From NCBI GenBank assembly GCA_020137815.1, contig CM035352.1:9052001-9116000 (forward strand): a DNA stretch of 64,000 bases, written 5' to 3'. This DNA is from Hormiphora californensis. Lineage: Eukaryota > Animalia > Ctenophora. Shown piece after piece: positions 9,610-50,646 of the stretch; within the stretch, counting starts at the first letter, position 1, and every line of letters begins with the position of its first letter. The notes beneath the pieces were generated by a model. It searched no databases. It was not told where the DNA came from and saw nothing but the letters and a program-made list of their open reading frames with translations. Made by a program: the position numbers and the translations under genes.

Positions 9610-9615
9610 TACATC

Positions 9616-11001
9616 ATGGCACCACCAAGGCTAGATCCCTGGAAGAACCAAGAGGAATGGAGGATGGTATACGACCTCCTCTACTCCCCAAACCACCCAG
9701 ACATAACCAGAGGTCTATCCTTCCTGACCGTCTGGCGACTCCGCTCTCCCCGCCTGCCCCTCGCAGTAGAGTGTACTGGGGAGCTGGTCCGGGCTAGTTT
9801 AGAACTGGGCGATACCAACTCAATCATCTCCACCTACTCTCTTGCCATTATCCGGTTTGTTAATGGCTACACAGACAGGGCCCAGGCAGGACTCTTTGCC
9901 CGACCTACCCTGGCCCTGGGTTCCAGTCTGGGTATCCCAGAGTGGATAGTGTATATGCGACATGATGCTACCCACAAATCCCTACCAACCATAAGGGAAG
10001 CCCGGGCTGCTGCCCAGTTCGCACTAAGTTGGTTGCGGAGTCAGTACTGGGACGCCCAGGTGGAGCATGTTGCCATGGTAACGGACAAGTCACGTGATAT
10101 GCTGGAGAGGTATGTGGAACTACAGGGCAGAGTGGAGGGGAAGAAGGCCAAGAAGGGGGAGTTAAGTGAGATGATAGAGAGGATGTGTTCTCAGCCCTCC
10201 TACGAGATGGGTATACTGACAGAGAGCATCATAGACCGTTGCCTGGCAACCGATAATAACAAGAGTGTTGTCCCCCTGTTAAATCATCTGAGGAGAGTTA
10301 AACCTGTGTTGTTTGATGAGATTTGGGTATCTTTAACACGCCACTATAACCCCTCAACTGTAACTCATCTGCGGGCCTTGTTTTCTGAATTCCATCAGAA
10401 TGACCTCCTTCCATGTCGGGACTCACTAAGGGAATCAGTAGTCCGGGCCCTACTGCGAGTAGAGAACAACCCAGAAACTAGGGAGTTGTGTCAGAAACTT
10501 CTAGCGGGGATTAGTACACCGCTAGAGAGGTTACTTAACATTACAACAACCAGTGGTCCAGCACAACAAGTCAGTGGTCCAGCACAACAAGTCAGTTCTC
10601 CACCCCTTACTCAACAAGTCAGTGCTCCATCCATTACACAGCAACTCAGTGAAGGAGGGGAGATAGTGGGGACACTCCGTCAAATTGTTGAGAGATGCAG
10701 GAAGGATCAGGGAGCCAGTAATAAGAGGTTTACAATGTGTCATGTTAAGGACTGGGAGGGTGTTCCATTGGGATCACTGCCATACAGTGATGTTAGTAAC
10801 TACAGTGATATGGTAGTAGTCCAGGAGAAGACGAGGGAGAGGGAGCTGGTGAAGGAATGTACCCCGGTTGTGACAGAAACAAGTCATATTGTCGTTCCTG
10901 ATGTTCCAGAGACTGACACTTCAATACAGAGTGAAAGTAGTGAAGTTGTTAGTAAATTAGAGATCTTGAGAAAGAAAGTCAGACTTTTAGACGAAGAATA
11001 A
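9616..11001 (+). CDS. LAS1L: LAS1-like ribosome biogenesis endoribonuclease, intronless
   Basis: PWKNQEEWRMVYDLLY, LPLAVECT, YSLAIIRFVNG, LGIPEWIVYMRHDATHKSLP (HEPN RxxxxH motif), WLRSQYW. Confidence 0.93.
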   Translation: MAPPRLDPWKNQEEWRMVYDLLYSPNHPDITRGLSFLTVWRLRSPRLPLAVECTGELVRASLELGDTNSIISTYSLAIIRFVNGYTDRAQAGLFARPTLALGSSLGIPEWIVYMRHDATHKSLPTIREARAAAQFALSWLRSQYWDAQVEHVAMVTDKSRDMLERYVELQGRVEGKKAKKGELSEMIERMCSQPSYEMGILTESIIDRCLATDNNKSVVPLLNHLRRVKPVLFDEIWVSLTRHYNPSTVTHLRALFSEFHQNDLLPCRDSLRESVVRALLRVENNPETRELCQKLLAGISTPLERLLNITTTSGPAQQVSGPAQQVSSPPLTQQVSAPSITQQLSEGGEIVGTLRQIVERCRKDQGASNKRFTMCHVKDWEGVPLGSLPYSDVSNYSDMVVVQEKTRERELVKECTPVVTETSHIVVPDVPETDTSIQSESSEVVSKLEILRKKVRLLDEE

Positions 11002-11162: not shown

Positions 11163-20422
<9,260 letters not shown>

Positions 20423-20900
20423 ACCACCCAACACCTCCCCTACACATCACCCAACACCTCCCCTACACCTTTATACCTAACAACATCGAACAACAAGGAC
20501 ACACACTGCGGAGCTGAGAGAGATGTCTGCCAGTTGACACACACACACTGCGGAGCTGAGAGAGATATCTACCAGGTTTTGGGGCTTTTTGGGATTTGCA
20601 TCACGTGACTACTAGGACACGTGACTACTATCACGTGACTCTAGGAACATGTCTCAGCAGCAGGATGGTGAAGGATGGTGATGTGTGTTTTTTGTAAAGC
20701 TCGATACTCTATTTGTTTAACAAAAACGAAACCCACGACTTTTGATAGTGCCCCACAAATGAAATGTTCGACCAATATATCTGTCATTTTTATCGTTTTG
20801 CACACACGTTTTGTCTGAGTTTTTGTGCTCCTGCAACCCACCCCCTTCTACACCCTCCAACACCCTCCTACCCGCTCCAATCATCAACGACTAACCTAAT

Positions 20901-21602
20901 ATGGCCCTGGGATTGAGAAGTCAACCTATTGACATCATCAACACCTATCTTGACGGAGATGGCGCCTCTACCGCCGCGGTTGCCGCCTCACTAAAGAAGA
21001 AGAACACTGACCCAATTGCATGCATGCTGTCTATAATGTTCGCGGTTAACAGCAGGCAAGAGGATAGAGTTAAAGTATTTGAACAACAGATTCTTGACCT
21101 TACTAAAGAGAACAAGGAACTGAAAGAGGAGAACCAGGAACTCAGTGACCGCCTACTCCGCGCCGAGGCTTATAGTGGCAGAGCTACCAGTATTCTGACC
21201 AACGTGCCCCAACCAGCCGGTAACAATGAAGACACTGTTGCCGTGGTAACCGGGGTTGTTAAGAAGATTATACCTGATTTTACCCGTGAGAGGATCTCAG
21301 TAGCCCACCGCAACAAGCAACGTACTGACAACAAGCCACGCTCTATCACAGTGGTTTTCACCCACATCAGAGACAAGGATATTGTATCTGATTTCCGGAA
21401 ACAGCAACCTCTAAGACCCAACAAAATCGGGGTCTATCACTACACCCCCAAGAGTGTACTGGAGAGGAAACAACAACTGCAAGATCTGGACTGTGTAGAG
21501 AAGATCTACTATGATGGACCGAACCGGATGTTCAGTGTCAAGTTAGAAGGAGAAGAGAAATTCAGACGCAATGTGCTAACGAGAAATGACATTATGAACT
21601 GA
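20901..21602 (+). CDS. ORF1 of a CR1-group LINE (coiled coil plus RRM-like region)
   Basis: Coiled coil LTKENKELKEENQEL followed by ISVAHR...KPRSITVVF, typical of LINE ORF1. Confidence 0.75.
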   Translation: MALGLRSQPIDIINTYLDGDGASTAAVAASLKKKNTDPIACMLSIMFAVNSRQEDRVKVFEQQILDLTKENKELKEENQELSDRLLRAEAYSGRATSILTNVPQPAGNNEDTVAVVTGVVKKIIPDFTRERISVAHRNKQRTDNKPRSITVVFTHIRDKDIVSDFRKQQPLRPNKIGVYHYTPKSVLERKQQLQDLDCVEKIYYDGPNRMFSVKLEGEEKFRRNVLTRNDIMN

Positions 21603-22770
21603 ACTTTTATCTCGCGGCCAGGCTGAACTACTTAGTATATTTATTAATCTTAACAATACCAACATTTGTATCAGTACCTTCTACAGAGTTGGTACTCTCT
21701 CCACAGACAATTTTAGTGTTTTTCGACAACATATTCTCTCACTCACTAAATCACGTGGTTTTAGACGCCACCTACTGATAGGGGATTTTAATCTCCCTGG
21801 TATTTCCTGGCCCACAGCCACTTGTAGTAACTCATTAGAGAGTGACTTTGTAAATCTTTTAGTTAATGATCTGGGTCATACTCAGGTTATTGATCAGCCG
21901 ACACACATTTCTGGTAACACTCTGGACTTAGTTTTCACAAATTGTCCCGATCTTATAGATCAGCCAGAAGTTTTAGAACGTGACCAGATCTGTGTAACTG
22001 ATCACCTCGGTGTCACCCTGAACATTGATTTTAAAGTTCGTGCTCTAAAGGGGCCCGATCGTTATTATTATAATTTCGCCAATGCTAATTTCCTTTCTCT
22101 TAATGTAGCTTTAGCTAGAGTAAACTGGAACAATGTTATTACTGCCGATATCACAGCCTCATGGGACCGTTTCAGGTCCATCTTGATCTCTCTCTGTGAT
22201 CAATATATACCTAAAAAGCGTGTCAAAGGTAGTTTTGCCCCACTCTGGTGGGATCATGAGTGTGATAAGGCACGTAATAAGAAAGAGACGCTCCGTAAGC
22301 GGCATATTAAAGTGAAAACTGACGAGTCTAGGAATAGCTACTGCAGATCTAGGAAAGTTTTTAAATCCGTAATCAATGGTAAGATGAATAGTTACTTCGG
22401 TGTGGGTGACCAGGGAGGTATTTCCAAACGTTTTTGGTCCCACATCAAGTCATCTAAGAAATCTGCTAGGATTCCGGATACTGTTTTTCGTAACGATATT
22501 TCCAGATCTGATCCAGTAGGTAAAGCTAACTTGTTCAACTCTCACTTCTTTGAGCAGTTTACGTCTCCCAGTAACTATGATATTTCTATTGACTACTCTA
22601 CAGAGTCTGACCCAGACAACTTTCTTAATCTAGAAGAAGTTCACAAGGCACTCATCTCCATCAACTCATCCAAAGCCTGTGGGGCAGATGGTATTCACGG
22701 AAAAGTTCTTAAAAACTGTGCCGGATCACTGTCGTACCCACTTTGGCTACTTTTCAACAATAGTTTTAGA

Positions 22771-23086
22771 GGGGGGGGTGACACGTAACACTTTGTAACA
22801 CTTTGTAACATGTGCAGAAAACTTTTTGTGCACGTTACATGTTACAAAGTGTTACAAAGTGTTACAAAGTGTTACAAAGTGTTACAAAATGTTACAAAGT
22901 GTTACAAAATGTTACAAAATGGGCATTTTTTGCAACATTTTGCAACATTTTGCAACATTTTGTAACACTTTGTAACACTTTGTAACACTTTGTAACGCTT
23001 GTAACACTTTGTAACATGTGCAGAAAATATTTTGTGCACGTTACATGTTACAAAGTGTTACAAAGTGTTACGTGTCACCCCCCCCC
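22771..23086. mobile_element. MITE with G-run TIRs and internal 10-bp tandem repeats (tgttacaaag)
   Basis: GGGGGGGGTGACACGTAACA...TGTTACGTGTCACCCCCCCC flanked by TTTAGA at 22765-70 and 23087-92. Confidence 0.88.
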
Positions 23087-23402
23087 TTTAGAACCGGATC
23101 TATACCTGATGATTGGAAACTCGCTTCTATCGTACCCGTTTTTAAAAAGGGTGAGAAGAAGGATGTTTCAAATTACAGGCCTATTTCCCTACTCTCTTTA
23201 GTCTCGAAGCTTTTAGAAGATTTAGTTAGATCTAGATTACTTATTAGAATCTGTGGCCCACTCATTGATCCTAGACAGCATGGTTTTATGCAGGGTAGAT
23301 CGTGTAATACTCAGTTGATCCCTTTCACATACTCCCTTGCTGCCGGTATAGGTGATGGGTGCAGATCTGATGTGGTCTATTTTGACTTTGCTCGTGCTTT
23401 TG

Positions 23403-23850
23403 GGTAAGCGGTAAAGGTTGACCCGTCTCCTGAGAATTATATTTTTATTTGGCCATAACTCAGCCATTTCTTGACCAATTTGCAAAATCTTGGGCTCATT
23501 GGAAAAAAGACATTAAGATCTTTAAAATGAGCTCAATAAAATGAAAATTGGCGCAAATTGCGCGGCGTAGTGGCAAAAACGCGCATTTTACGCCATTGCG
23601 CCGCGCAAAGCCGCGCAATTTGCGCCGATTTTGATTTTCTTGGGCTCATCTGAAAGAGCTCAATGTCTTCTTTCCAATGAGCCCAAGATTTCGCAAATTG
23701 GTCAAGAAATGGCTGAGTTATGGCCAAATAAAAATATAATTCTCAGGAGACGGGTCAACCTTTACCGCTTACCTGTCTGGCGCCGCGACCCATCTGAGCG
23801 CACTGTTGAGAATCAAATTGGGGTCTGGCGCCGCCAGACAGCCGCTTACC
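23403..23850. mobile_element. Mutator-like palindromic MITE with 9-bp TSD
   Basis: GGTAAGCGG...CCGCTTACC; TSD GTGCTTTTG at 23394-402 and 23851-59. Confidence 0.9.
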
Positions 23851-25410
23851 GTGCTTTTGACTCCTGTAACCATGATTTAATACTTTCTAAGCTCAAATAT
23901 CAATTTAACGTAGATGGGGAAATGTTAAACTTTATCAAGAACTATCTCATGAACCGTACACAGCGGGTAGTAGTTGATGGGCAGGCCTCTGATACCCTAC
24001 CTGTTATCTCTGGTGTACCCCAGGGTAGCCTTCTTGGACCCATTCTGTTTATTATCTTTATTAACGATATATTTAATGAGGCAACTGAGGGCACTGGAAT
24101 ATCACTATATGCGGATGATACTAAGATCTGGAGACGTATTGAATGTATGTCAGATCACTACTCTCTCCAAGAGACTGTTAACAACCTCCAATCCTGGGCC
24201 GTCCGTAATAGAATGATATTTCATCCCAACAAGTGTCACACTCTTAGTATAGCTAGGACTTCTAGTCGCCACTCGATTGATAACTATCTAAATCAGCTTT
24301 CATTTCTTCCCTGTTATAACTATTTTTATGAATTAGATGGTATTATTTTAGATTATGTTACTGTTCAGAAAGATCTTGGAATTCTTATAACTCAAGATCT
24401 AAAGTGGACCACCCACTGTTATTACATTGTCTCTCTAATGAGATCTAGTTTTAATCGTTTAAGATACACCTGTTATTTTCTTTCGAACAGCTCCCATAAA
24501 CGATCTCTATATTTTTCTATGGTTCGTTCCTTTACTGAGCATTGTAATCCTATTTGGAACAATATTGGTAAAACCCATCTCTACAATTTTGAAAGACTCC
24601 AAAAGAGTATCGTCAAATGGATAAGAAATGAACCCTTAGCCTCTTATACTAATTCCGTTTATTTTAAATACCTTTTAGAACTTAATATTTTACCCATTAA
24701 AGAGCTGTTCATTTACAATAATCTTAAACTGTTTTACAAGATTCTCCATGATTTAGTGCCCTTGCCTTTGCCCCATTTTATTAGCTTGTCAGACCCAGCT
24801 TCACTTAGATATACCCGCCATAATGTTAATATAATACAAGGTCTAGATATCACTTCTTTTGATGACACTCTGAACATCAGGGCTCACCCTAACCTGAGGA
24901 ATACTTATTTCCACAAAACCACCTCGGTTTGGAACTCTATTCCGTATGAAATCAGGCAGAGTGCTAGCCTTCCTGGCTTCCTAGTTTCTCTCAGGAGGTA
25001 TCTCTATGACTCAGTCGATATCGATAGTATTTTACCATAGATTTCACATTTCACATTTCACATCAACAACAACAACAACAACAAAATGGATTTATATACC
25101 GACTAAATAGACAAGTACTCTCGATTGGTTCGAAGAGCAATTGCCATTCATAGCGGTTCTCTCATCCTATCTTGACATATTGGTTGACAAAAGGTCGCAA
25201 ATGGTAACTCATACTGGTGACTTATAACTGACATATATAGTAGACTTTATTAACTCTCAACACTTGGTGACTGTGGGTGACAAGTATAATCAGAAAAAAT
25301 AATAACAAAAATGATAAACTGAATAGTATCTTAGATTATAAAGAATTATGTGGCAGCAGCAGGGGTGACCGTGTGAGAACGGGGACTAATGAATAACCGA
25401 AAAGAAATTA

Positions 25411-28400
25411 TTAAAGACTGATGTCGAAAACCAAATAAGGTCTTTCAGAGAAGGTAACAGTAGCATCGAACAGGTAGGTCTTCAGGCGAATACGGAAGGA
25501 GTCCTCTGAAGGTGCGTCTCTGAGGTTCTCCGGTAGGTTGTTCCAGACATGGGGGAGATATTGGGATATTCTCCTTTTTCCCAGTTTGCTCACTTTCACA
25601 TTACCAGAAAGTAGCTTTAACTTGTAATGGTCTACTTTACAGCTCTGACGAGTAGACTTTTGCACTGCAGTATTTTCATCATGTTCCACTAGATCCTGAA
25701 GGTACTGAGGGGCACTTCCATAATAGATCTTGTACCCTAGTAAACAGATTTTGAAAAATATCCTCTTCTCAATCGTAAGGATATGGGAATCACGGTAGAA
25801 GGGGTCCAGATCAACTTTCCTCTCTCTGACTCCATGGATGTATCTTATTACTTGATTCATTAGTCCTTTCAGCGGCTTGATGGTAGAGGCCGGTAGGTTG
25901 AAATACAGGGCATTGCAATAGTCCACTTTGGATATGACCAGCTGGGAAGCAAGCATCAGACGTAGAGGTTTATCAATGAATCGGCGGATCTGCCAGAGGT
26001 TCCTCATAGTAACTCCAGCATTCCTCTTGACCATGGAGATTTGACGTTTCATATCCATTTGTTCATCAAGATAGACACCAAGGGTCTTTCCCGATTTTCC
26101 AGCCATGTCCATGGGGGAAATGATGTTCCCATTTAGCTCAAGAGTCAGGTCACTCTCCTCACGTACAATATCCATCTTCTTCTTCTTTCCCAGGATAAGA
26201 AACTCAGTTTTATCCTCATTAACCATCAGTCTGTTTTCAATCATCCACGTTCTTACCTCCTCCAAACATTTCTCAATAGTCTCCTTTGAACCTGTCCAGC
26301 CTTCCACAGGGCAGAATCCTATGTATATAGTGCTATCGTCTGCATAAAGTCGTATTGTGAGTCCATACTTCTTTACAATAGGTTCTAGTGGTTCCACATA
26401 CAGGGCAAAGAGGACAGGACCAAGGAGAGAGCCTTGGGGTACTCCATATTTGAGAAAGAGCCTAGGTGAGAGGGCATCTCCAATTTTAACTTTATAGCTC
26501 CTGTCATTGAGATAGCTAGTGAACCATTCGAGTACCGTTGATCCAATTCCAAACCGCTTCTCCAGTCTCCTCAAAAGCTGAGGGTGGTCAATGGTATCAA
26601 ATGCAGCCGAAAGATCAATTTGAACGACTGCCACAACATTTCCTCTGTCCATTTCCCCAAGGACATCATCAACGACTCGCACCATATGTGTCTCACAACT
26701 GTGGTTGGGGCGAAAACCAGATTGGCATTCACCTCGCAGGTCGTTTTTCTCCAAATGTTCATTTAGCTGTACATTAACAGCTTTCTCCGCTAGCTTGGAC
26801 AGAACACTGAGATTCGAGACTGGTCTGTAGTTCGCAAGAGAGTCCACATCTCCAGATGTATTCTTGATTGTGGGCCTCACAATAGCCTCTTTCAGTCCTG
26901 ACGGGAATACACCACTCTGCAAAGAAGTGTTCACGATTTTGGTAAGCACTGGTAGTAGAGTAGGGAGAAGCTGCTTCAGCAGAGAGGTCGGGATAGGGTC
27001 CAGGTCACAGAACTTATCCGGCAGGCTCTTAACAAGGCTTGCCACTTCATCTTCAGTCATAAGACTGAACGTCTCAAATCTTTCTGTCTCTCCTTCAAAA
27101 GCACCGGACTCCGTTGATTTCTTTTCACCCAATTCTTCAATCTTGTCACCAATCTTCTTCTGTAGTTTATCAATCTTGGACTTGAAAAACTCTCCAAACT
27201 CAGTTGCTAGTTTCTCCGGGTTGACCATATCTGGGAGGATAACATTGGAGTTACCCAATAGCTTGCTCAGTTGTTGGTTGAGCCTCTTTTGATCGCGTCC
27301 ACAGAGTTCAATATTTCTTCTGGTGTATTCTGACCGTTTTCTGACCTCCATCTTGTTGAAAGCTGACCTTAGTTCCACATACATGGCCCTTAGCTGCAGC
27401 TTCTCTTTTGTCTTGTCCTTTCTCCACTTTCTCTCAGCACGCCGCTTCTTCCTCCGGAGGGTTAGCAGCTCTTCATCCATCCATGGTGTATACTTCTCTT
27501 TCTTCCTTCTCTTCTTCATTGGACAGTGCTTATCAACCAGGGCTAGCAACGTTCCATATAACTTCTCAACAAGGCTATTAACATCCTCTTCATCAGCAGG
27601 TGAGGTAAACAGTCCACTGGCTTTTAGATCCTCATTAAAACTCTCCACATCCACCTTCGAGAAGTCCCGATACCAAATTGTCTCCGGCCGTTTCCTCTTA
27701 CTGATCCTCGCAGTCAGTTGTAGGTCCACTGTAATAAGATGGTGGTCTGAAGTAGTTCCCTCCTCCAAGATCCTAACTGGTTCAAGACAATCCGCTACTG
27801 TAGCATCCATCAGGGCTAGGTCCAGAGTACCTCCATGTCTGTGTGTTGATATCAAGGGAACCATCTGTTTGAAGTCAAACTCCTCGATCATCTCCTGTAG
27901 CTTTTTTGGATAAAATTCATCAGGCCTTTCCATGTGAAAGTTGAAGTCTCCCATGATTAATGGTGCCCCGACTTTACAGTTTAGTTCCTCAAGGTATCCC
28001 TTGAATTCATCCAGGAAGTGGCTCTGGGTATGAGGTGCCTTCTTCGAGTACGGTGGCCTATAGATGTTTACTAGCCGGTACATCTCATTAGCATTTCCAA
28101 TAGTAGTCTCTGTACACTCAAAGGTCTTGAAACACTTGGTAGGTCCAGATTTAACACCCAGGTCCGCTCTGTATACCATTGCTACTCCACCACCAATCCT
28201 CTGCTTCCTCGGTGCCGAGTGGATTTCCCATCCTCTTTCCTTTATCTCATGATGTTTAGCATTGTCACCTTTCCTCAGGTAGGTCTCTTGAAGAAGACAA
28301 ATATCAACAAGCTGGTCCTCAAGGTGTTCCAGTACACCAGCAGTCTTATTGACAAGGGAGTTGCAGTTCAAAGTTCCAACTCTTAGTGAGTTCTCCTTCT

Positions 28401-28440
28401 TTCCAAGAAGTCTCGTGCCTTCCGACTGTACTCGTTTTTT
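25411..28440 (-). CDS. LINE ORF2 (APE endonuclease + reverse transcriptase) with no ATG at its N-terminus
   Basis: LRVGTLNCNSL, LLQETYL, MGDFNFH, GGTLDL, SDHHLI, NYRPVSNL, DLSAAFDTIDH, YGVPQGSLLGP, LYADDS, ISKVDYCNALY. Confidence 0.93.
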   Translation of the reverse strand, partial: KKRVQSEGTRLLGKKENSLRVGTLNCNSLVNKTAGVLEHLEDQLVDICLLQETYLRKGDNAKHHEIKERGWEIHSAPRKQRIGGGVAMVYRADLGVKSGPTKCFKTFECTETTIGNANEMYRLVNIYRPPYSKKAPHTQSHFLDEFKGYLEELNCKVGAPLIMGDFNFHMERPDEFYPKKLQEMIEEFDFKQMVPLISTHRHGGTLDLALMDATVADCLEPVRILEEGTTSDHHLITVDLQLTARISKRKRPETIWYRDFSKVDVESFNEDLKASGLFTSPADEEDVNSLVEKLYGTLLALVDKHCPMKKRRKKEKYTPWMDEELLTLRRKKRRAERKWRKDKTKEKLQLRAMYVELRSAFNKMEVRKRSEYTRRNIELCGRDQKRLNQQLSKLLGNSNVILPDMVNPEKLATEFGEFFKSKIDKLQKKIGDKIEELGEKKSTESGAFEGETERFETFSLMTEDEVASLVKSLPDKFCDLDPIPTSLLKQLLPTLLPVLTKIVNTSLQSGVFPSGLKEAIVRPTIKNTSGDVDSLANYRPVSNLSVLSKLAEKAVNVQLNEHLEKNDLRGECQSGFRPNHSCETHMVRVVDDVLGEMDRGNVVAVVQIDLSAAFDTIDHPQLLRRLEKRFGIGSTVLEWFTSYLNDRSYKVKIGDALSPRLFLKYGVPQGSLLGPVLFALYVEPLEPIVKKYGLTIRLYADDSTIYIGFCPVEGWTGSKETIEKCLEEVRTWMIENRLMVNEDKTEFLILGKKKKMDIVREESDLTLELNGNIISPMDMAGKSGKTLGVYLDEQMDMKRQISMVKRNAGVTMRNLWQIRRFIDKPLRLMLASQLVISKVDYCNALYFNLPASTIKPLKGLMNQVIRYIHGVRERKVDLDPFYRDSHILTIEKRIFFKICLLGYKIYYGSAPQYLQDLVEHDENTAVQKSTRQSCKVDHYKLKLLSGNVKVSKLGKRRISQYLPHVWNNLPENLRDAPSEDSFRIRLKTYLFDATVTFSERPYLVFDISL

Positions 28441-29597
28441 AACATCTCAGCTCCGGCTGTTCTACTCATCAATCTCTCCTTCTCCATGATAAAGAAGGGA
28501 CACTGGAAACTGTTCGCTGTGTGGGTGGTGGCATTGAGCTGATCGATCTTGCTTCGGCTACTCTTGCAGTTTGCACAGCATCTGGAGTCAACTTTTCTAT
28601 CCTTCTTCACTTGACAATCCTTGAACCGATGATTTCCAGCACAGTAGGTACAAACTGGATCACCACTGTCTCTCCTGGGGCACATCACTGAGTCTGACTT
28701 GTGACCATAGCGTTGACACTTGAAACATTGAACGATATGGAATCGATCCTTCACAATGTGGATTTGAAAATCAAGGTTAATTCTGTCATTCCTTTTGCGA
28801 ACAATCTCCCGTATCTTTTTTGACATCTGCACAACTGCATATCGATCCTCCTTATGAAGAAAGATGACTTTCAGTTCCTCTTGGTGACTTTCAACCTGCT
28901 CTTTGATTTCCTCATTTTTCCTCAGTATTTCACTGTACACTTCCTCGGCAGTGGTAATTTCTCCAGCAATGTCTGAGATTGTAACTTTTGGATTGAGCTT
29001 CTTGGTGGTCAGAGTGGCTGTTGAAGTATCAAATTCAGATTTCAGCAGTTCTTCAGCTTTGTCTCGTTGAGACTTGTCCTTGAAAACTAGATTGGTATCC
29101 TCTTCATTCGAGCTGGTTCCATCAACTGGGATTGACTGCAGAGTCTTTCGTACCTTCGCCTTTACAACTTTCCACTTTTCCAGTCCAACTTTCTCAAGTT
29201 TGAGGGTGTGCTTCTGTGGTGTCTTCTTAGGGCTGGGGTTGAGCAACTTTCCAGTATCATCAGTCTTCTCCTTGCCGTTTATCGCCTTCTGTATCATGTC
29301 TGGTATGTTTGCAAAACACTCCCGCATAGCCTCAAGCTCCTTGAGAACCTGTTCAGACCTATCCTGTCCCACTACTGCTCCTTCTTCTGACTTGGTCTTC
29401 ACAAGGTCTTCCTGCTGCTTGTCCACCATTCTCAATAGGTTAATAGCAAAATTCCATAGAATATCTTTAGTGATACCCGCTGGGGGAGCTTTTTTACCTT
29501 GCAAGATTGGGTCCATATCCACAGGTAGATTATCTTTCATAAACGTGTCCAACTCTTTCCTCGTCCATAACTTTAGCGGGATTGCCTTCAATGTCAT
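28383..29597 (-). CDS. LINE ORF1, gag-like with three C-terminal zinc knuckles
   Basis: CFKCQRYGH...C, CTYCAGNH....C, CANC...H......C. Confidence 0.9.
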   Translation of the reverse strand: MTLKAIPLKLWTRKELDTFMKDNLPVDMDPILQGKKAPPAGITKDILWNFAINLLRMVDKQQEDLVKTKSEEGAVVGQDRSEQVLKELEAMRECFANIPDMIQKAINGKEKTDDTGKLLNPSPKKTPQKHTLKLEKVGLEKWKVVKAKVRKTLQSIPVDGTSSNEEDTNLVFKDKSQRDKAEELLKSEFDTSTATLTTKKLNPKVTISDIAGEITTAEEVYSEILRKNEEIKEQVESHQEELKVIFLHKEDRYAVVQMSKKIREIVRKRNDRINLDFQIHIVKDRFHIVQCFKCQRYGHKSDSVMCPRRDSGDPVCTYCAGNHRFKDCQVKKDRKVDSRCCANCKSSRSKIDQLNATTHTANSFQCPFFIMEKERLMSRTAGAEMLKNEYSRKARDFLERRRTH

Positions 29598-29810
29598 CAC
29601 TAGCTACGATCTGCAGGATAAATTCAAGGCCTCGCCTAACGACAACTAGTGTCAATCCTCCGGGTAAGATCCGGTCTTCTCTTGTCTTAGGCCTTGTCTT
29701 TCTCACACAGAAACTGTTACCAGTCTCTGATAAACCCAGAAAAGACAAAACAAAAAAGTATAAAGAGCCGAATATATACCAAAGAACTTAGCGAATTGGA
29801 AAAACGAAAC

Positions 29811-29849
29811 CTCAAATTAATTTGTTTAAAGTAGTGTTGAAAAGTTTGA
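29811..29849 (-). other. Genomic copy of the ctenophore trans-spliced leader exon
   Basis: Minus strand TCAAACTTTTCAACACTACTTTAAACAAATTAATTTGAG matches, from memory, the pleurobrachiid SL (...ACTTTTCAACACTACTTTAAACAAATTAATTTGAG). Confidence 0.85.
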
Positions 29850-31387
29850 GCCCAGTATGACCACTATGCCAGTTGGGGAGGTCTTCCCGTTTGGTTACCC
29901 GTGCCGATTTCCCTCCCCTCCCTCTCGTGTTTTCTAAACAAGTATACGTGTGTGCAAACGTATATTTTTATATTTTAAAAGTCTTAAACTGTACGCAGCC
30001 CTTAGTTGCTCTGTCTGGAGTACTCCAGTCAGTGTGGGATGCGTGGAACTGTGTTTTGAGTGATTTTGAAAATCCATTACTGTTTGATAGTTCCAAAATA
30101 GTTCTGAAATAAAAATAAGACCACACTACTGCACCAATATCAAGCATTTCTCAAAGCTAGTCGTTGCCATGCCAATGACATCACCGCACCGCCCGCAGAT
30201 CAAGCCTCGGTTTACCGGTAAACGCGTGGTAAATAAAACGAATGATAGATCGAGGGCTATATTAACTACTACTTTCTCACCCCCGTCAAATCAAGATCAT
30301 TGGCATTTGACCCCCTGCCACCCCTTACCTTAGAGACAAGAACTATAATGAACCACGAATAAAACTCTAATGATCCCAACTCTAATGATCCCAACTTGGT
30401 AACCACACTGCATACATGGTGCGTGAACTATTCTTCTCGATCATTGCACAATACACAATGAGTAATGGGGTGGTAAAAATAACTCCTATAGTTGTGCGTG
30501 CTGGCCCAGCTATCTAGTCAAACCTTCCTTTAACCTCCCGGCAGGGTTTCATTTTATCGCCATATTCGTCCACTTTCTTTCTAGTTTCTCTTCTCTCTCT
30601 TTCTTCTTCTTCTCTCTCCCCCTTCTATATATGAATATCTCTAACTCTTTCTTCCAAGTGGTTATATTGTTCCATGGTATATATATGAGCCCCTCCCCAA
30701 CCCCCTCCCATTCATAATTCACCTTGATCGGTAGGACTTAGGAATTTTCTTCAAGTTGTGGTCGAATGCCATCCTTGATCGGTAGAACTGTTAGTTACTA
30801 GTGTCTTGGTCTATTCGTTACTAGTTGTGATCTATTAGTTAGTTACTAGTAAGAATAGAGTTCCGGCACGCGTCTAGTACTGCATGCACCTATATAGTAT
30901 ATTCCATCCATATTTCCATAAAAGTTGCAGGGGGGGGGGGGGGGGCTCGGTGCACACCCAGGGTCCTACATCTCTCTCTCTCTATCCTCTCTCTCTCGTC
31001 TCTCCCCTTTCCTCCTCTCATCTCTTCGGACAGCCGTGGTCCATCGGGGCCACCTAATACGAGCGTTGCTCACAAAGATCCGGGGTGCACCCCCCCCCTC
31101 GGTCCATCACCATGAGGAAGGTCACAGTCCACGGGGTGGGAGTCCGTGGGTCAAAAAAAGCGGTTCTCCTACTCTCGCGCACACCCCGATATACCCCAAA
31201 AGAAAACATGTCAAAAAAAACCCTTATTCCCTCTCCAACTAGAAAAAGGCTCACTCCTCAATCTTACCACTCTCAGATGTCCTCATTTCCTCATCAGCTC
31301 TCTCTCTCTTCCATTCTATCTCCTTCTTCTCTCTCACTTTGTCTCTCTATCTCACTTTTTTCTCAATTTTTCAATTTTCTCTCTCAG

Positions 31388-32746: not shown

Positions 32747-33194
32747 TCATTTAACATCCTCTGCTTCATTCTCGACAGATTTCGTTTTCTTGAAACAGCA
32801 TAACCAATCAAATGCCTCCGTTATGACCAAGTTTATCAATCCTGTGAAAAGCAAGTTGCGGTGAGAAAAGGGGAAAAACACATGGAAGCCATCTTTAAAA
32901 TATCAACAAACTTCTTGAGTGGTTGGACACTAATCAACATATTGTAGGAGCAATAGGATCTCATTACCTGATGTACTGATAATTCCTCCTATAATTCCCA
33001 GTAACCGGGCTAAGAAAATTGTTAAGTTCTTCTGTTTCTTTTCCACTATAGCTGCAATCGGTGAAAACTCATACTTGATCAAGATCCCTGCAGTGCCATG
33101 ACTCCCTGACTTGTGGTCAACAGCACGTATCTGAAAACCACAGAGTTACACCACTGACATCCTATTATTTCTATCTCTCTCTCTGTCTTTCTAG

Positions 33195-33225
<31 letters not shown>

Positions 33226-33240
33226 TCTCTTCTCTGTCTC

Positions 33241-33271
<31 letters not shown>

Positions 33272-34029
33272 TTGTTTACTCAGGACTCACCTGCTCCTGC
33301 ACAGTGTACTGGTAAGTCTGCACATTCACAGTATCCGTCAGGTAGAGCGTAGGAACAATCTGTAACGTGTCACGTGATCACAATTCGGAATAGTTACAGC
33401 GTCGTGCAACAAATGCTGACAAATGTTACTTTAAGCGCGCCAGGATCATCGCGCGTCACTGAGTTGTCTAAAACTTGTCTGACTTGAAATTCGAGTCTCT
33501 AAGCAAACGTATCGTCGCGAGTTCATAACCGGAAAAAAGATAAAAAAACATTATAAACTTGAAATCAAACCCTAAGCTGATTATTCTTTACCTGAATGAA
33601 ATACTGGAAGCTGTAATCAGCAATGGGTGCAATCCTGTGCTCTCCATCTAAAGCATAGTGCATGCCACCAACCCGGTCCCCAAATGTCAGCCCATCAATT
33701 CGGTGTGAAAAGTTCCGATGAACCTCCCCAAATTGGAGGTGAGCGTGACCCATCCCAGGCAACTTGACAGATCGACCTGAAACTAAAATATGTTAAACGA
33801 TATTTCACGATATAACTGACATTTAACTTTGCATTCCAATTTAAATTTGTCACATGTCAAATTCCATTGCTTTAGTTTTAGACGTGGCGCCACTAACCCG
33901 ACAAAATATGGAAGTTTCCTTTGACCTTGCTGACAGGTATTTTCCCGTAAAGACGACATGCATCTTTCGGGGCTTCATTTCCGTTGTCTTGTCTAGGTAC
34001 AAGGTGGACACCGTAGTCACCAATCAGAT
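32747..34029 (-). CDS. ERGIC2: ER-Golgi intermediate compartment protein 2, 3' half only; exons 34029-33898, 33776-33592, 33360-33292, 33070-32968, 32841-32747
   Basis: DACRLYGKIPVSKVKGNFHI, GHAHL, NFSHRIDGLTFG, FQYFIQIVPT, GSHGTAGILIKYEFS, FLARLLGIIGGI. Confidence 0.92.
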
Positions 34030-34343
34030 CTAAAAAGGGAATGTTATTGCAAATAGAAGAAGGACTGCTGTAGTTTGTTAGTGAGTATAAAAGTGTGATA
34101 GGGTGGAGGGGAAGGGGGGGGAAAAAAATTCCCCACATCTCATGTCATCATCCGTCATCTAAGTCTGTTAGGTTGATGGATTGATGATTGTTGCTTGCTG
34201 AGGGGTCGGTAGCTGAGTGAGAACTCCCGTTGCATCATCTATTTGTGTATTTTTTTGCCGAATTTTCTCTTTGTCAGCTGCTCAAGAAGCTGCTCAAAGT
34301 CATCATTACCACTCTAACCTCTATTGCCTGGATCCTTCTGCTT

Positions 34344-36585: not shown

Positions 36586-38892
36586 GGAAGCCCACGTGTT
36601 GCAAAGCGACTCCCAAGTCTGTCATCCAGCACGGCTCCGTCGAGAGCCATAGTTTCCGATGATCCACCCAGATGCGCCGATTTGCCTGCCTGTCGAACAC
36701 AAAATCACCTCAACACCATAAAATCACCTCACTGTATTTTACCGCGACCGGTGATACTTTTCTAAGTATGTAACATAAAAAATAAAAATCACCAGACTTT
36801 TAACACACTTTTATACCAAGGAGAAAATTTAAAATATTACCCTCAAATATTTTCTCAAAAAATGTTCCTCTCCGTTTTGCGTTCCTGCGTATTTATCGAC
36901 GGGATGGTCACATACCGTCGTCTCACCCCCCTCGAAAGGAAAAATGTTGGTCCGAGAATGAACCTATTGTATCCCCCTGGATACAATCACTTTTCTTGAC
37001 ATACCCTTTCCTCCAAAACCACGCCCCAGGTGCCTGCGCCACCTATTATATACGTCTTCCCCCGCCAGGCTTTTCTGTTCCCCCGTAAATTCCAATGAAC
37101 ATTCCTCCTATTGTTCATTTCCTTGTATTGTCTAATAAAAATATTCAGATATGATTTTAGGCACCTATAATAATTCACGGCTCCTTCCTGCCGTCCCCCT
37201 GTCGACCGCCGTTCCCCCGTTTAAGGTCTACAACCATCAGCTTTGAATTCATCTTCCCACCCATCCACCGTCCGTTATATAATATCAATATAATATGAAT
37301 GAGGTCGGGCGCTACTCCGATCCCCCTCTAATGCGTTTTCTGGTCGTCCCAACCCTGACCTATCCCCAATAATACCCACCACATGCTTAGCTACCAACCG
37401 ACCAATCCAGCCAACTAGCCAGCATGCCCCAATTTTTGCGCACGGCATTCTTGATGTGTCGGGATTTGACACACCCCCACCGATAGGTTGGTCACACCCA
37501 CGTTTTACCTTCTCCTGGTACACCGTGATAATAACCAACCTATAGGGGTGGGTAACTAACCTACACTAGTTTAGCACGTTTTGCCCGCGATGTGCTAATA
37601 TCCATGGGCAAAACCCTAGAGAGAATTAGAAACCCTATCGCATATATGCTTTTGCTTCCCAAGTTTTGGGAAAGGTGATAAACCTTCTGTGTGCCAGGAC
37701 CCAAAATAGCACTACAGTCGAAAACGCATTAACAAAGCTGATATAGGTGTATAAAGGAAATATAAATATATTATACGCTAATATAGCGTCCTAGGGGTCT
37801 ATCCCTGTGGATTCCCACCCTCCCCTGTCCCATGTTTTGTCTCTTAAACTGTATATACCTCCCCGGCCATACCCCGTGTTTCTCTGTGTCAGTCGTGGTA
37901 TGTCATGTGGTACCTTTGTCCAACCCAGGCTAGGATCTCAGTGGTGTGCCTTCTTCTAGACTCTTGCCGGAACCCTTTATCCTTGAGCTATCATTATTTC
38001 ATAAGCAATCCCGGCTTCAACCCATTATATTGGAAGACGACTGCCCGCTGCCGTATAGTGTCACTACCACTCTTGTTCTGCCCCACTAAGCGCATTTAAT
38101 ACGGAGAGCTCTACTCTAAGAGGAGTCACACTATGACACACTTGTATAGACGTGTCCCGTATACCTGCACTCAGCATGGTGTTACCCTACCCTCTAAGGA
38201 ATCATTCTAGTAGTAGCACTACACCTTCTTTCTTTCTGCAAATTACCAAGGCTACTTCAATACGGAGAGCTCTACTCTAAGAGGAGTCACACTTTGACAC
38301 ACTTGTATAGTCGTGTCCCGTATACCTGTAACCTGCACCGTGCTACCCTATCCTAATGAATCATTCTACTGCCCATTCTGCCAGTATTCAATTCTAGGAA
38401 CCGATCCCCCATACCTGACCGATCCCCCATACTGATCGTTACCTCTCATTATGCCCCTCCCTAGCATACCACTTCAAACCAGTACCAATTAAAACTGACT
38501 AGTACCATTCATTCCCAACTGGCTATCATATGTTTGGCCCTTACTTCTCATCTACTACTACTTCTTATCTACTACTGCGACCAGTCAACAACTTCGCCTC
38601 GCCCGACTCAATGAACTCAACCAACTGGACCATATTATTCATTTCCAGCATCTTACTTCCCCGTGTCGGCCGCCTGCTATAATTGGTTATACTGACCCCG
38701 ACCCGTGCACGTGTATACTGTGTACTGAATACCTATAACGGGTGCACTGACCTCCCTTTGTAAGGTTACTTTTGAATTCCTGGCCCTGCCCAAACCGAAA
38801 CTCTGCCTAAACTGAGAGCACCGCTACTTTATCTAAACTGGAGCATTAACTTAGTCTAATTCAGCTTGAACACTGGCCCCTGTTTTACTTCA

Positions 38893-39346
38893 GCTTGACC
38901 TAAACGGGAGCCTACTATCCTTTATTTCCGCTCGACCTAAACGGGAGCGTACTAGCCCTCATTTCCGCTCAACCTAAACGGGAGCGTACTAGCCCATATT
39001 TCTACTCGTCCTAAAATGGAGCGTACTAGCCCTTATTTCTCGTTCCGCTCGACCTAAACGGGAGCGTACTAGCCTTAATTTCCGCTCGACCTAAACGGGA
39101 GCGTACTTTACCTCACTTCAGCTCTACCTAAACGGGAGCATTGTCTTGTAATAATAGCTCTACCTAAACGGGAGCACTGCCTTATTATAGCTCGACCTAA
39201 ACGGGAGCACTGCCTTACGATAGCTCTACCTAAACGGGAGCACTGCCTTACGATAGCTCGACCTAAACGGGAGCACTGACTTATTAGTATAGCTCGTCCT
39301 AAACAGGAGCACTGACTTATTAGTATAGCTCGTCCTAAACGGGAGC
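38893..39346. repeat. Array of 13 GCTCnnCCTAAACGGGAGC hairpin units, period 33-43 bp
   Basis: Copies at about 38893, 38930, 38967, 39004, 39047, 39084, 39121, 39157, 39190, 39223, 39256, 39292, 39328. Confidence 0.92.
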
Positions 39347-42191
39347 TCTGCCTTATTATTATATCTGCGTTTAACCGGGAACACTACCTCACTTCCCTTG
39401 CTAGACCTCCTGCCCTGCTAGCTATAATGCCTACCCACGAGCCCTACCTCCTTACCTACCTAGACTTTCTGCCTTGTTAGCTATATCGACCCATACCACC
39501 TCACTAAACCACTCCGTTAGACCACCTCATTAGTTAGCACTACCATGCTAAACCACCTGCCTAGTTAGCACTACCATGCTAAACCACCTGCACTGTCTTA
39601 GTTAGTACTGCCTTGCTAAATTACCTGTCTAACTAGCACTACCTTGTGAAACCCCCTGTCTAGCTAACTGTGTCCTGTGCAAGGCCAACTGAATTGCTAG
39701 CTACACCGACCGGTACGCCCTATGTGTACTGTTACTTCCTTACACCCCATTTCCTTCCCGGGGGCCCTGTCTAATAGCCCTATCCTGAACTAAACCTGGG
39801 TTTTACTGAAACTTTTTAAGATACCTGATACTGTCTAAAACCGATATCCAACCGGCCTATTTTACTGAGACCCAGGTTGTAGAGACACACTTTATAACCT
39901 TCCCAGACCCACACCACGTCTACTGCCCAGGAAGTAATTCAAACTATCATACGTACTTCCCTAACCAACTCTCAGCTACGGTTAATAATACGGCCCCACT
40001 GAACCGCCAATAACTTCCTATCTACCGAGCCATGTGTCTCTCTGGACTGCCCGAGTGTAAAGCTTAATTCAGATCTAGTAACCTCCTACCTAAATCCTAA
40101 TCCCAATCCTAATCCTGATGAAACAATTGAATTGTCACTTAATTGATATCATGCTCTACATTGCCCCGCTTAATTATCATTAATTTTGCAAAGACTTTCA
40201 CAACGCACCTTCTTCCTTTTCTAGGCCCACAGAATGAGTACATTAACCGTTAATCGTGTATTTAGACCGCCATTCGGGCCTTAACATCACCTGATACTGT
40301 TCTTCACGCCAAAAAGTAACCTAGGAACTGGTATACTGACTTCAATACAGTTCATGTCGCATCCGACTACTTACTCGACTACTGTGTAGAAGACTGGGCA
40401 TGAGATCTATTCACTCACACCGCCTATTTATAGGACCTACCTTCCAGCCCGTTCCTACAGCCCTACTCCCTAGAGCCGCTTCACTACCAGCTTCCTGGCC
40501 GCACCACTGTCACCTAGCCCGTGTACTGTCATGTCCCACACCCTGATTGTGACAAGCCCCTACCCGGCTACCCCCACATGACGTATTCCAATTCTTTTTA
40601 GGAGAGAAACTTCATTTTACCACGCCCAATTTTAATTACCCCCTCCAAATTATGTCGTGATGAAACTGTGTTCCTTGATCATGATATTTAAAAAGTCCGG
40701 GAACTTTACTCACAGACTGCTACAGTTAGTGACATATTAGATTCTTAAACCGAAAAGAGGTGTCTGTGATATTTTCCCAACTTTTCCGATCACGCAACAT
40801 CCCCCGCCCGAACATTGTTGCACGCTACTCACCTTTGTAGCCCCAATGCAGCACCAAGGTTGATTTGCTGCCCAGAGTGTGTTACCGCAGCACTAGCCAA
40901 AATTTCTCTGAAATCGCAGCCCAAATTCTCTTTTCGACAGTAATTTTATAACACATAATAATAAATAAATCAATTGGTGTCATTGTTACCTCTCTCCTGG
41001 CTCAATCTCTGTCGCTGCGCAACTTTGATCTCGCCTGAGTGAGGTATCACTGTGTGTGCGGACCCCGGAGCCACCGGACACTATGTCTAACCTCAACCCA
41101 CACCCCAACTCACAACTCCACCCACCTCTCAACTCACATCTCAACTCACACCTCCAGCCCCTATTCCACTAACCTCGGACCCAAATACCAGCCCCAACCC
41201 GGCCCTTCTAAACGCGTATAGAGGTACAGCAAACTCTCGCCTCCGGTCTAACGGTCGAAGTTCGCTGTGAGTGATCTTAGCACTTGAGTCCGCACACTGT
41301 GTCAATGCCACCAAACGATTCAATAAATCCGAGTAATAATACATTATACAACGTGAGCGATAGTTTGCCCTCCCATAACCTCCAAATCCCCTATTCAGCC
41401 TCATTCTTCCACCCAAACAATACCTAAATCTTTAAATTTAAACATTGCCAGCAACATTAGCCAATGTGGCTGCACACCTTACCCTAAAAAGACTGTCTTT
41501 TCCTTTCTAACACGTGCCTAACATGTACCAAATTTCGGTTCTTTCTGTTATACTATGCAAATTTTAGGAATGAATGAATGGGTGTCTTACCATTGCAGCA
41601 TGACTCACGGCTGCCTCTGAACCAAATGGGAAACCTTTGCCCTAGAGTTTTGTGGGAATTTCTAAACATATATCAGCTGTGGGTTTAATATTAGTGTCTC
41701 CCGCCGGAGGGGTACCAAAATAAGGCAACTGCTGGAGCAAGCAATGTTTGTTTATAAGTTAAAATTCCAAACCGGGTCCCCGTCTGTGCATCCTCCAGCT
41801 CCCATAATTAACCATTAGCCTCACACCCCATATAAAAAGTCAAGCAGCAACAGGACAGGTCGCCAAGAGAGAAAAGAAAAGATTTGATGGCTTGGCGGCC
41901 GTCCTGCTACTACCCAGCCTTGTGTACCTGATTCTACAAGCATAAAAAATATCCACCGCCCATCAAAACCTATATTCCTATTTTAGTGATAAAATTACCA
42001 ATACAAATGCGAGCATACCTGCAAAGGTTGTAAATGAAAATCTGAGAATAAATTTCCTAACTAACTCCTGCTCCCTACTCAGCTCTCTCTCCGCCTAAAT
42101 AATATAATGCAAAGCCCTCTCTCCGTAAAATTGAGCCCTCTACCGTTCCAAAAAGCATAGCCTGCATACAAATGTCAACTCAGATGCTGAT

Positions 42192-43818: not shown

Positions 43819-44803
43819 CAGGGACGGCGCTCGTGGGTGTCCGGGTGTCCGCGGACACCCAGACCAAAAAAACGGAGAGAGAAAAGAAGAAAAAATGGAA
43901 AAAAACAAAAAGAATTTGAAAAAAATCGGTGAAAACTGCGAAATTTTGGATTTGCGCGCAGCCGGGTGTCCGGAGCTCTGCCGGACACCCAGGTTCACTG
44001 CGCGCACCTGTAACGCACGGCAGAGCATAAAGAGGGTTCTTCCGCGCGCCACAGTGCATTTTGACATGACCAGGGTGTCCGGTTCACCCAGAAAGTTGTG
44101 TGCGCGCGGATGAGTTATTTTTGTTGTGATCAGAAAACTTTCATCTTTTTTTCCATTTTTCACAAAAGGAGTTCAGAAATGCTTAAAATCGTTTAAAAAC
44201 GCCTCAAAATGTCCGAAATTTTCGGGGGGCTTCGCCCCCTCAACCCCCACCGGGGCTTGCAGCCCCTGGACCCTGCCTGCGGGGGCTCTGCCCCCTACAC
44301 CCCCCCCCGGGGCTGCGCCCCTGGACCCTGCTTGTGGGGGTAAGCGGTAAATACTCACTCGGTTCTTCACATTTTTTGGACATTTTTGGCCATAACTCAG
44401 CCATTTTTTGACCAATTTGCAAAATCTTGTGCTCATTGGAAAGAGGACATTGAGACCTTTAAAATGAGCCCTAGAAAATGAAAATCGGCGCAAAATGCGC
44501 GGCGTTATGGCGTAAAATGCGCGTTTTCGCCATAGCGCCGCGCATTTTGCGCCGATTTTCATTTTCTAAAGCTCATTGGAAAGCTCTTAATGTCTTCTTT
44601 CCAATGAGCCCAAGATTTTGCAAATTGGTCAAGAAATGGCTGAGTTATGGCCAAAAACGTCCAAAAAATGTGAAGAACCGAGTGAGTATTTACCGCTTAC
44701 CGCTTGTGGGGGGTTTCACCCCCCACACCCCCTGACCGAGGCTGCCGCCCCTGGCCCCGGACACCCAGGAACTTGCTGGGCCCAAGGCCCAGCGCCGTCC
44801 CTG
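43819..44803. mobile_element. hAT-type MITE, copy 1 (contains a nested MITE)
   Basis: TIR CAGGGACGGCGCT; 8-bp TSD CGCTGGCG. Confidence 0.92.
44339..44701. mobile_element. Mutator-like palindromic MITE related to 23403-23850
   Basis: GGTAAGCGGTAAA...TTTACCGCTTACC; 9-bp TSD GCTTGTGGG; empty site present in hAT copy 2. Confidence 0.93.
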
Positions 44804-49968: not shown

Positions 49969-50646
49969 ATGAGGGGGTGCTCTGTTGTAAAACTTAGAGA
50001 AAATGAACTGTTTGAGCACGTTAGAATTGATCATGCAGATAGGAAATATCGGTGTAAAGTTTGTCCTATGGCATGCAAAAAGTCCAGTCATCTTGCTCAG
50101 CACATTCTGATTCACAGTGGAGATAAACCTCACCAATGTGACGAATGTGGAATGAAATTTGCACAAAAAGGTGTTTTAATGCAACATCGTCTTTCTGTCC
50201 ACTGTGATCCTAATAAAAAGATTGTTGCTTGCCGACTCAAAGGTTGTGGATTGAGATTACCCAAAAATGAGTTGTACGAGCACATTAGGACTACACATCC
50301 GAAAGAAAAGTTCCAGTGTGATGTTTGTCCTATAAGTTTCAAAACACCGACACAACTGTCCGTACACAAGCGGAAACATGATAAAAATAAACCATACAAA
50401 TGTGATATTTGTGATAAGAGATTTACTCAATACGGTTCTCTTAAAAATCATCTTAATTTACATACCGGGAAGCTTCCATTCAAATGTGATGTGTGTGGTA
50501 AAGGTTTTGCTCAACCAGTTTCTATCAAGAGGCATATGAGGACACACACTGGTGAGAAACCTTTTGCTTGCTCTCACTGTGGGAAATATTTTGCCTCATC
50601 TTCAAATAGAAAATGTCACGAAGTTTCCTGTTCTGTGATAGAGTAA
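49969..50646 (+). CDS. Tandem C2H2 (Kruppel-type) zinc-finger ORF; possible upstream exons (49123-49416, about 49583-49740) look degenerate
   Basis: About 8 fingers with HSGDKPHQC, HTGKLPFKC and HTGEKPFAC linkers. Confidence 0.8.
   Translation: MRGCSVVKLRENELFEHVRIDHADRKYRCKVCPMACKKSSHLAQHILIHSGDKPHQCDECGMKFAQKGVLMQHRLSVHCDPNKKIVACRLKGCGLRLPKNELYEHIRTTHPKEKFQCDVCPISFKTPTQLSVHKRKHDKNKPYKCDICDKRFTQYGSLKNHLNLHTGKLPFKCDVCGKGFAQPVSIKRHMRTHTGEKPFACSHCGKYFASSSNRKCHEVSCSVIE

Follow-up and report, generated by a model that had tools for sequence, protein, structure and literature searches.

In a 64,000-nt stretch of the genome of the ctenophore Hormiphora californensis (contig CM035352.1, positions 9,052,001 to 9,116,000; hereafter the window), the minus strand carries an intact long interspersed nuclear element (LINE) whose 5′ end is the spliced leader (SL) of the host. 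The first-pass annotation of this DNA had described a 5′ untranslated region (UTR) of about 210 nt, two intact open reading frames (ORFs) and a GTT-type tail, and measurement gave a UTR of 213 nt, two open frames and a (TTG)7 tail, arranged together with the insertion site as follows.

29811..29849, minus strand: SL exon, the 3′ 39 of 43 nt, by identity to the published leader and to the SL gene exon of metagenome locus L011
29598..29810, minus strand: 5′ UTR, 213 nt, predicted to form a single long imperfect hairpin (fold, z −3.2)
28383..29597, minus strand: ORF1, 404 aa, gag-like, with three Cys/His knuckles (type I ORF1) and its ATG at 29597 (translation)
28434..28440, minus strand: A-AAA-AAC heptamer at the ORF1/ORF2 overlap, in the ORF1 frame, a candidate −1 ribosomal frameshift site (sequence)
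25411..28446, minus strand: ORF2, intact, with apurinic/apyrimidinic endonuclease (APE) and reverse transcriptase (RT), 1011 aa from stop to stop (translation and Pfam)
25085..25410, minus strand: 3′ UTR, the span between the ORF2 stop and the tail
25064..25084, minus strand: (TTG)7 tail (sequence)
25041..25061, plus strand: (ATTTCAC)3 tail of a neighbouring CR1-like element, which is the insertion site and lies outside the LINE (sequence)

The 39-mer read on the minus strand from 29849 to 29811, claimed earlier to be the SL, agrees in every base with the 3′ 39 nt of the Hormiphora californensis leader, which is printed as 44 nt (PMC8527503), and so marks the host as a pleurobrachiid ctenophore. 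It equally matches the 43-nt exon of the SL RNA gene in L011, the first 4 nt being absent, and a 17-nt part of the SL occurs exactly once in the 64-kb window with nothing else at ≤3 mismatches. ORF2 matched only Exo_endo_phos and RVT_1 in Pfam (PF03372/PF14529 and PF00078), with no RNase H, and the APE domain at its N-terminus agrees with the earlier assignment to an APE-type element rather than one with a restriction-like endonuclease (RLE); 156 relatives of ORF2 were found at E ≤ 0.001. The Pfam search gave no match for ORF1, the knuckles of which were read from its translation, and its look-alikes in Atlas, taken as leads, included clusters with zf-CCHC (13% of members) and PRE_C2HC.

Metagenome contigs were scanned for the SL followed by GT, a pattern by which only SL continuations beginning with GT are detectable, yielding 15 matches at 14 loci. 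Because they begin inside the SL and lead into a long host-type ORF, 11 of the 14 were read as mRNAs. Locus L010 belongs to the window family (95.7% identity over 1753 nt) and has an unrelated upstream flank, with 35 nt of SL joined at the same junction, and L007:1-4950 (minus strand) is a full-length, intact member of a second LINE family, which starts with the whole 43-nt SL, ends in (ATT)n and is bordered by genomic sequence on both sides. In all three copies the SL is identical to the exon of the SL gene (39/39 in the window, 35/35 in L010 and 43/43 in L007); between the window and L007, ORF2 is 43% identical and the UTRs have only a 13-nt local match in common. Two of the three genomic copies with a known upstream flank lack 4–8 nt of the SL, each of the three carries a single SL with no tandem relic, and all 3 dispersed SL copies among the genomic loci examined head a LINE. 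On this sequence evidence the SL head is a real, family-wide feature and one common to two distant families. Because the join sits exactly at the exon's splice junction in both, acquisition of the leader by trans-splicing is well supported, and with it the proposal of the annotation that element RNA was SL-trans-spliced and then reverse-transcribed; ligation or a template switch to SL RNA would be expected to bring the intron along. The second, distant SL-headed family makes the case stronger than the annotation had it.

Beyond these contigs, SL pattern scans of viral contigs and GTDB genomes gave no match, ORF2 scans of viral contigs gave no relative, and a ctenophore SL was convincing in none of the best 80 GTDB loci with ORF2 relatives (0/80). 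The GTDB loci are apparently eukaryotic DNA in bacterial bins, and since nearly all of them are without a related ORF1 (L034 alone has part of one) they do not bear on the idea of an SL head.

The SL RNA gene itself was available for comparison in L011, where a tandemly repeated unit of 778 bp pairs an SL RNA gene with a 5S rRNA gene; both SL RNA genes present there are uninterrupted.

L011:263-381, 693-735, 1041-1159 and 1471-1513: alternation of SL RNA gene and 5S rRNA (L011 annotation)

The intron of the SL RNA gene begins with GTAAGC, whereas the element after its SL begins with GTTTCG, and the intron matches the first 40 nt of the element at 13 of 40 positions, indicating that the element is neither an SL-RNA chimera nor an insertion into an L011-type SL gene; the annotation had asked for this comparison of the bases after TTTGAG. 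SL-gene sequence of the L011 kind is present in none of the three upstream flanks and, the intron included, in neither of the two downstream flanks, in agreement with the annotation's claim that no SL gene array lies beyond the SL.

Assembled contigs, rather than raw reads, were used from 7 distinct sequencing runs of 22 listed, representing two organisms, A and B. The same SL junction was present in contigs of four of the seven (X1, X2, X7 and X13), and in none of these four was a non-SL sequence joined at the junction. X7 (organism B) gave one unbranched 471-nt contig running from ORF1 through 27 nt of the SL at depth 609, and X13 (organism B, another study) gave an unbranched 204-nt contig over the junction at depth 543, with 16 SL letters aligned and 11 beyond them, as well as a 5′-truncated copy that the assembly retained separately, at depth 34. 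By the ratio of the two depths, about 16 copy-equivalents underlie the SL junction, and retention of the truncated copy indicates that a low-copy variant can survive assembly. Both runs carry the two indels of L010, which is therefore of the organism B type. In X1 (organism A), labelled 'DNA?', coverage of the element starts at 25094 and extends 24 nt into the SL, both flanks being at zero depth; its junction-spanning contig is 1623 nt long and unbranched, and from this coverage alone we judged the run to be RNA, as an SL-headed transcript would look. The loose ends that X2 shows at the junction spell SL sequence. The annotation had proposed that independent full-length insertions be compared, and independent copies do have the SL at one junction against different flanks.

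Three further observations came from the same contigs. Five 5′-truncated copies (four in X5 and one in X13) stop within the region of the UTR hairpin, at 29642, 29664, 29677, 29687 and 29728, and have five different flanks. At position 29801, contigs of X5 and X7, and so of both organisms, run through the SL and about 10 nt of UTR-like sequence into different sequence, marking a candidate third SL-headed family. An apparent joint between 26191 and 29811 in X1 and X22 was rejected, as it rests on 21–22 purine-rich letters followed by unrelated sequence and is a chance match to another SL-headed RNA.

These data bear on two rival explanations. A one-off processed copy is refuted by the independent copies, and to the wider notion of a one-off event or an assembly chimera we give next to no credence: nothing was found in its favour, and against it stand the same junction in L010 with another flank, its recurrence in contigs of four of the seven runs and the SL head on a second family. 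Alternatively, rare master copies might reside at the exon/intron border of an SL gene and use its promoter, the dispersed copies being their offspring; such a master would supply a perfect, current SL without recourse to a GAG acceptor, and some non-LTR elements are known to target SL exons (PMC4640811). We regard this as improbable, since upstream SL-gene sequence is found in none of the three copies and SL intron in neither 3′ flank, the five truncated copies have five different flanks, and both SL genes of L011 are uninterrupted.

Comparison of ORF1 between the window and L010 gave a synonymous divergence (dS) of 0.14 and a nonsynonymous divergence (dN) of 0.03 (dN/dS 0.21; Fisher p 2e-10 for ORF1 pooled with 270 nt of ORF2), and by these counts ORF1 is under purifying selection. 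Maintenance of the ORFs under selection implies that the lineage kept transposing, and a retrotransposon should be unable to hand on a promoter that lies upstream of the 5′ end of its RNA. An ORF2 tree was built from 83 sequences, comprising 80 of 120 listed relatives (chosen by length and, below rank 62, as every third) together with the window, L007 and, as root, the neighbouring CR1. The deepest split in a clade of 13 (support 1.0) separates the window from L007, the two being 1.76 substitutions per site apart. SL heads throughout the clade would be an extrapolation from two families.

Selection on the ORFs also weighs on another unlikely account, in which the master copy is hidden and has its native promoter, an outron and a YAG acceptor, while the SL-headed copies that it gives rise to are dead ends. 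The precise, current SL would then come through an ordinary acceptor, and the master could have escaped notice, contigs being prone to lose rare variants and X5 being blind at the junction. No non-SL junction appears in X1, X2, X7 or X13, though X13 kept a low-depth truncated copy, and such a master would be unable to reproduce its own promoter, yet the ORFs are selected across two organisms and two families.

The first 255 nt were predicted to fold as one long hairpin in the window (z −3.2) and in L010 (z −4.4), and this hairpin is closed by a helix across the SL junction.

29802..29818, minus strand: 5′ arm of the junction helix, the last 8 nt of the SL and the first 9 nt of the UTR (predicted pairing, probability 0.97)
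29621..29637, minus strand: 3′ arm of the junction helix, ending 23 nt before the ORF1 AUG (predicted pairing)

The helix comprises 17 of 17 consecutive pairs, 7 of them G-U, the last 8 nt of the SL having their complement in the UTR, and was equalled in 0/60 and 0/500 shuffles; of 11 host mRNAs none came near it, the best reaching a probability of 0.69 with 8% of shuffles as good. The junction of L007 may pair in the register of the window, with C-G at two positions where the window has U-A (2% of shuffles as good). The helix is a prediction from two families rather than covariation evidence. Within the UTR, a polypyrimidine tract followed by CAG at +84, used by no copy seen, looks a better acceptor than the GAG of the SL, and the predicted hairpin would bury it. 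The acceptor of the host did not emerge from hexamer counts. Among the curated families of Rfam, no hepatitis delta virus (HDV)-like or hammerhead ribozyme was matched at E ≤ 1 in 29400-30400, and none reached the gathering score in L007 or L010.

At the overlap of the two ORFs, A-AAA-AAC lies in the ORF1 frame and ORF2 in the −1 frame in the window, L010 and L007 alike, and the ORF2 frame has no ATG ahead of the endonuclease domain. This heptamer ranks among the shiftiest (PMC5009743), and since both families have it, −1 frameshifting in a LINE is suggested. A search 3′ of the slippery site revealed no conserved stimulatory structure, where the window, L010 and L007 gave three different folds, and a literature search returned no L2-group example of −1 frameshifting.

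How the head is maintained is a separate matter from how it was acquired. The SL could have been captured once by trans-splicing and since then been templated, with an internal promoter starting at SL base 1, and with selection for translation or for the helix keeping the SL with no re-splicing. Internal promoters are the rule in LINEs, L1Tc being an example, and this hard-wired arrangement would suit the low divergence of the UTR between the window and L010 (4 substitutions and 2 one-base gaps in 213 nt, or 1.9%, against 14% at silent sites), the complement that the UTR has evolved to the last 8 nt of the SL, the existence of a full 43-nt SL copy in L007, and the fact that the acceptor would otherwise be a weak, paired GAG. 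Against it, the unpaired SL bases also equal the current SL gene (35/35 in L007 and, in the window copy, all 31 that it has), even though ORF2 differs by 1.76 substitutions per site, whereas the published account of the leader calls only its 3′ AATTTGAG motif largely conserved when Mnemiopsis is compared with Hormiphora (PMC8527503). Moreover, 4–8 nt of the SL are absent in two of the three copies with a known flank. On this evidence we consider a hard-wired leader doubtful, if still to be reckoned with.

We lean instead, by no great distance, towards the view that every cycle probably renews the SL, the host leader being trans-spliced at the 3′ AG of the SL copy itself. Renewal is the simplest account because a perfect, current SL sits on distant lineages and the ORFs are under selection with no other 5′ end seen. 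In this cycle transcription of the genomic copy would begin either ahead of its SL or inside it, owing to read-through or to imprecise initiation, a step in which an internal promoter may help. The spliceosome would then swap everything up to AG|G for a fresh capped 43-nt SL, restoring the 0–8 nt lost at integration. The predicted UTR hairpin would bury the stronger internal acceptors (AAG at +24 and the polypyrimidine-CAG at +84), and access would then be easiest at the SL junction, where the rod ends in weak A-U and G-U pairs. ORF2 would likely be produced via a −1 frameshift at A-AAA-AAC, and target-primed reverse transcription would copy the RNA nearly to its cap. The broader proposition, that a clade of ctenophore LINEs gave up both promoter and 5′-end processing, that read-through RNA is cut and re-capped at the carried SL, that the hairpin steers the spliceosome and that LINE heads make up a large share of 718 dispersed SL copies, is offered as a tentative whole that is rather more likely wrong than right.

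Several results weigh against renewal at the SL. The acceptor of the integrated SL is a GAG after A-rich sequence, whereas the host acceptors in the window, read by eye from DNA in a small sample, are YAG in five of five cases. The AG of the SL is itself paired in the predicted helix (probability 0.96), which could hide this site as well as the internal ones, and the UTR fold of L007 is not significant overall (z −0.5). Strong conservation of the UTR would be equally expected of an internal promoter, and an SL unchanged between the window and L010 would also be expected at the UTR's own rate. As to the contigs, the evidence is from assemblies instead of raw RNA reads, and assemblies can neither span the repeated SL nor reveal where RNAs start; X1 bears the label 'DNA?', X5 has a hole at 29731-29826 that spans the junction and proves nothing either way, X14 has no contigs on the element, and X22 (share 0.00) was likewise uninformative. 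The interpretation in the first-pass annotation stood in part: none of the three refuting conditions that it named was borne out, and the SL match, the shared junction, the non-intron sequence after it and a second SL-headed family all speak for it, whereas promoter-free re-splicing of read-through RNA at the SL's own AG is a step that we only infer.

The LINE is placed tail to tail at the end of the CR1-like element, whose stop (25038-25040) and separate (ATTTCAC)3 tail lie just ahead of the tail of the LINE. Comparison of the right flank with the CR1 and the rest of the window gave only 14–22-nt chance matches, and the suggestion that the DNA beyond the SL continues the 3′ UTR of the CR1 is thus unsupported. 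No target-site duplication was found, the longest word common to both flanks being 6 nt and not adjoining the ends. Within the right flank, 29922-30118 is multi-copy by contig depth in X5 and X7 and is probably a separate repeat. The CR1-like element itself (20895-25061, plus strand) has two ORFs and is broken by two inverted-repeat inserts, at about 22770-23090 and at 23403-23773, the latter with a relative at 44339-44701. Further LINEs with RT and RNase H lie at 17777-19978 and 55378-59526 (both plus strand), the second with an open APE-RT-RNase H frame of 1382 aa. Host genes at 9610-11001 (plus strand), about 32800-34030 (minus strand) and 49936-50646 (minus strand) comprise an uninterrupted Las1-like ORF, a C2H2 zinc-finger ORF and one multi-exon gene, presumably ERGIC-like, which supplied the sample of YAG acceptors. 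A 441-nt inverted repeat around 21-nt tandem repeats occupies 11593-14666, and an array of 33–37-nt repeats occupies 38852-39391.

A LINE must regenerate its complete 5′ end from an RNA that is unable to carry an upstream promoter, and the known solutions are internal promoters, ribozymes and head-to-tail arrays. If the proposed cycle is true, a leader carried by the element and renewed through trans-splicing by the host would add one more solution, operating in an animal and at the level of whole families. The predicted UTR hairpin closed across the SL junction and the putative shift site A-AAA-AAC at the ORF overlap of both families appear to be new here. Our literature search, which had Repbase and most subscription papers outside its range, found no report of SL-headed genomic LINE copies or families. 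The leader is carried by 56% of Hormiphora Iso-Seq reads, and dispersed genomic SL copies number 718 in Hormiphora and 491 in Mnemiopsis (PMC8527503); SL-headed LINEs offer an explanation for these hundreds of copies.

Among known systems, the element has the features of CR1-group (L2-like) LINEs, namely APE followed by RT with no RNase H, three CCHC knuckles and a short tandem-repeat tail with no target-site duplication, a tail of this kind without a clear duplication being an L2-like trait of the CR1 group. The L2 label is one that we take from C-terminal motifs, the ORF2 tree having held no named superfamily references, and the element is accordingly placed, as an intact L2/CR1-group LINE, to group by features and not to superfamily. 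Like CR1-group LINEs it has two ORFs, APE and RT, a repeat tail and dispersed, often 5′-truncated copies; unlike them it has an SL head at a splice junction, pairing between UTR and SL, and an ORF overlap at a slippery heptamer. R2 and L1Tc use HDV-like ribozymes to cut the element out of co-transcripts. Our element would likewise set its 5′ end from a read-through transcript, but here the cutting would fall to the spliceosome of the host and would leave the RNA capped, and no ribozyme family was matched. As for ORF1, a type I protein, with an RNA recognition motif (RRM) and three CCHC knuckles, is described for the L2/Daphne/Crack/Kiri/L2B assemblage (PMC4120745, PMC13343379), and the three-knuckle type also for Jockey and one CR1 subgroup (PMC4120745). 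In the window ORF1 the three knuckles are seen and the RRM part of type I is unconfirmed.

NeSL, CRE1, SLACS and CZAR encode an RLE. NeSL/CRE-type non-LTR elements are reported to insert into SL genes (PMC4640811). The window LINE resembles them as a non-LTR retrotransposon adjoining SL exon sequence and differs in having an APE, in being dispersed and in having flanks that are not an SL gene. With transposons of Hydra, where about 30% of the Iso-Seq reads from transposable elements carry the SL, and with Cer1 of C. elegans, in which a subgenomic RNA is SL1-spliced and the full-length 8-kb RNA is not (PMC3315495), it has in common that the RNA of an animal transposon would be a substrate for SL trans-splicing; in the Hydra account the SL is reported on transposon reads and not, as here, on genomic copies (PMC12220107). 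In the SL-relic retrogenes of dinoflagellates, trans-spliced RNA has been reverse-transcribed so that the SL lies in DNA, and the transcripts are re-spliced at the relics (PMC12014239, PMC3942190). The window, L010 and L007 are similar in having the SL in genomic DNA, at the 5′ end and joined at the splice junction. Dinoflagellate relics stem from host genes copied in trans and gain a tandem relic per round, whereas here the unit is an autonomous element of an animal with a single SL. By analogy, the proposed cycle would resemble dinoflagellate mRNA recycling applied to an autonomous element, without tandem relics.

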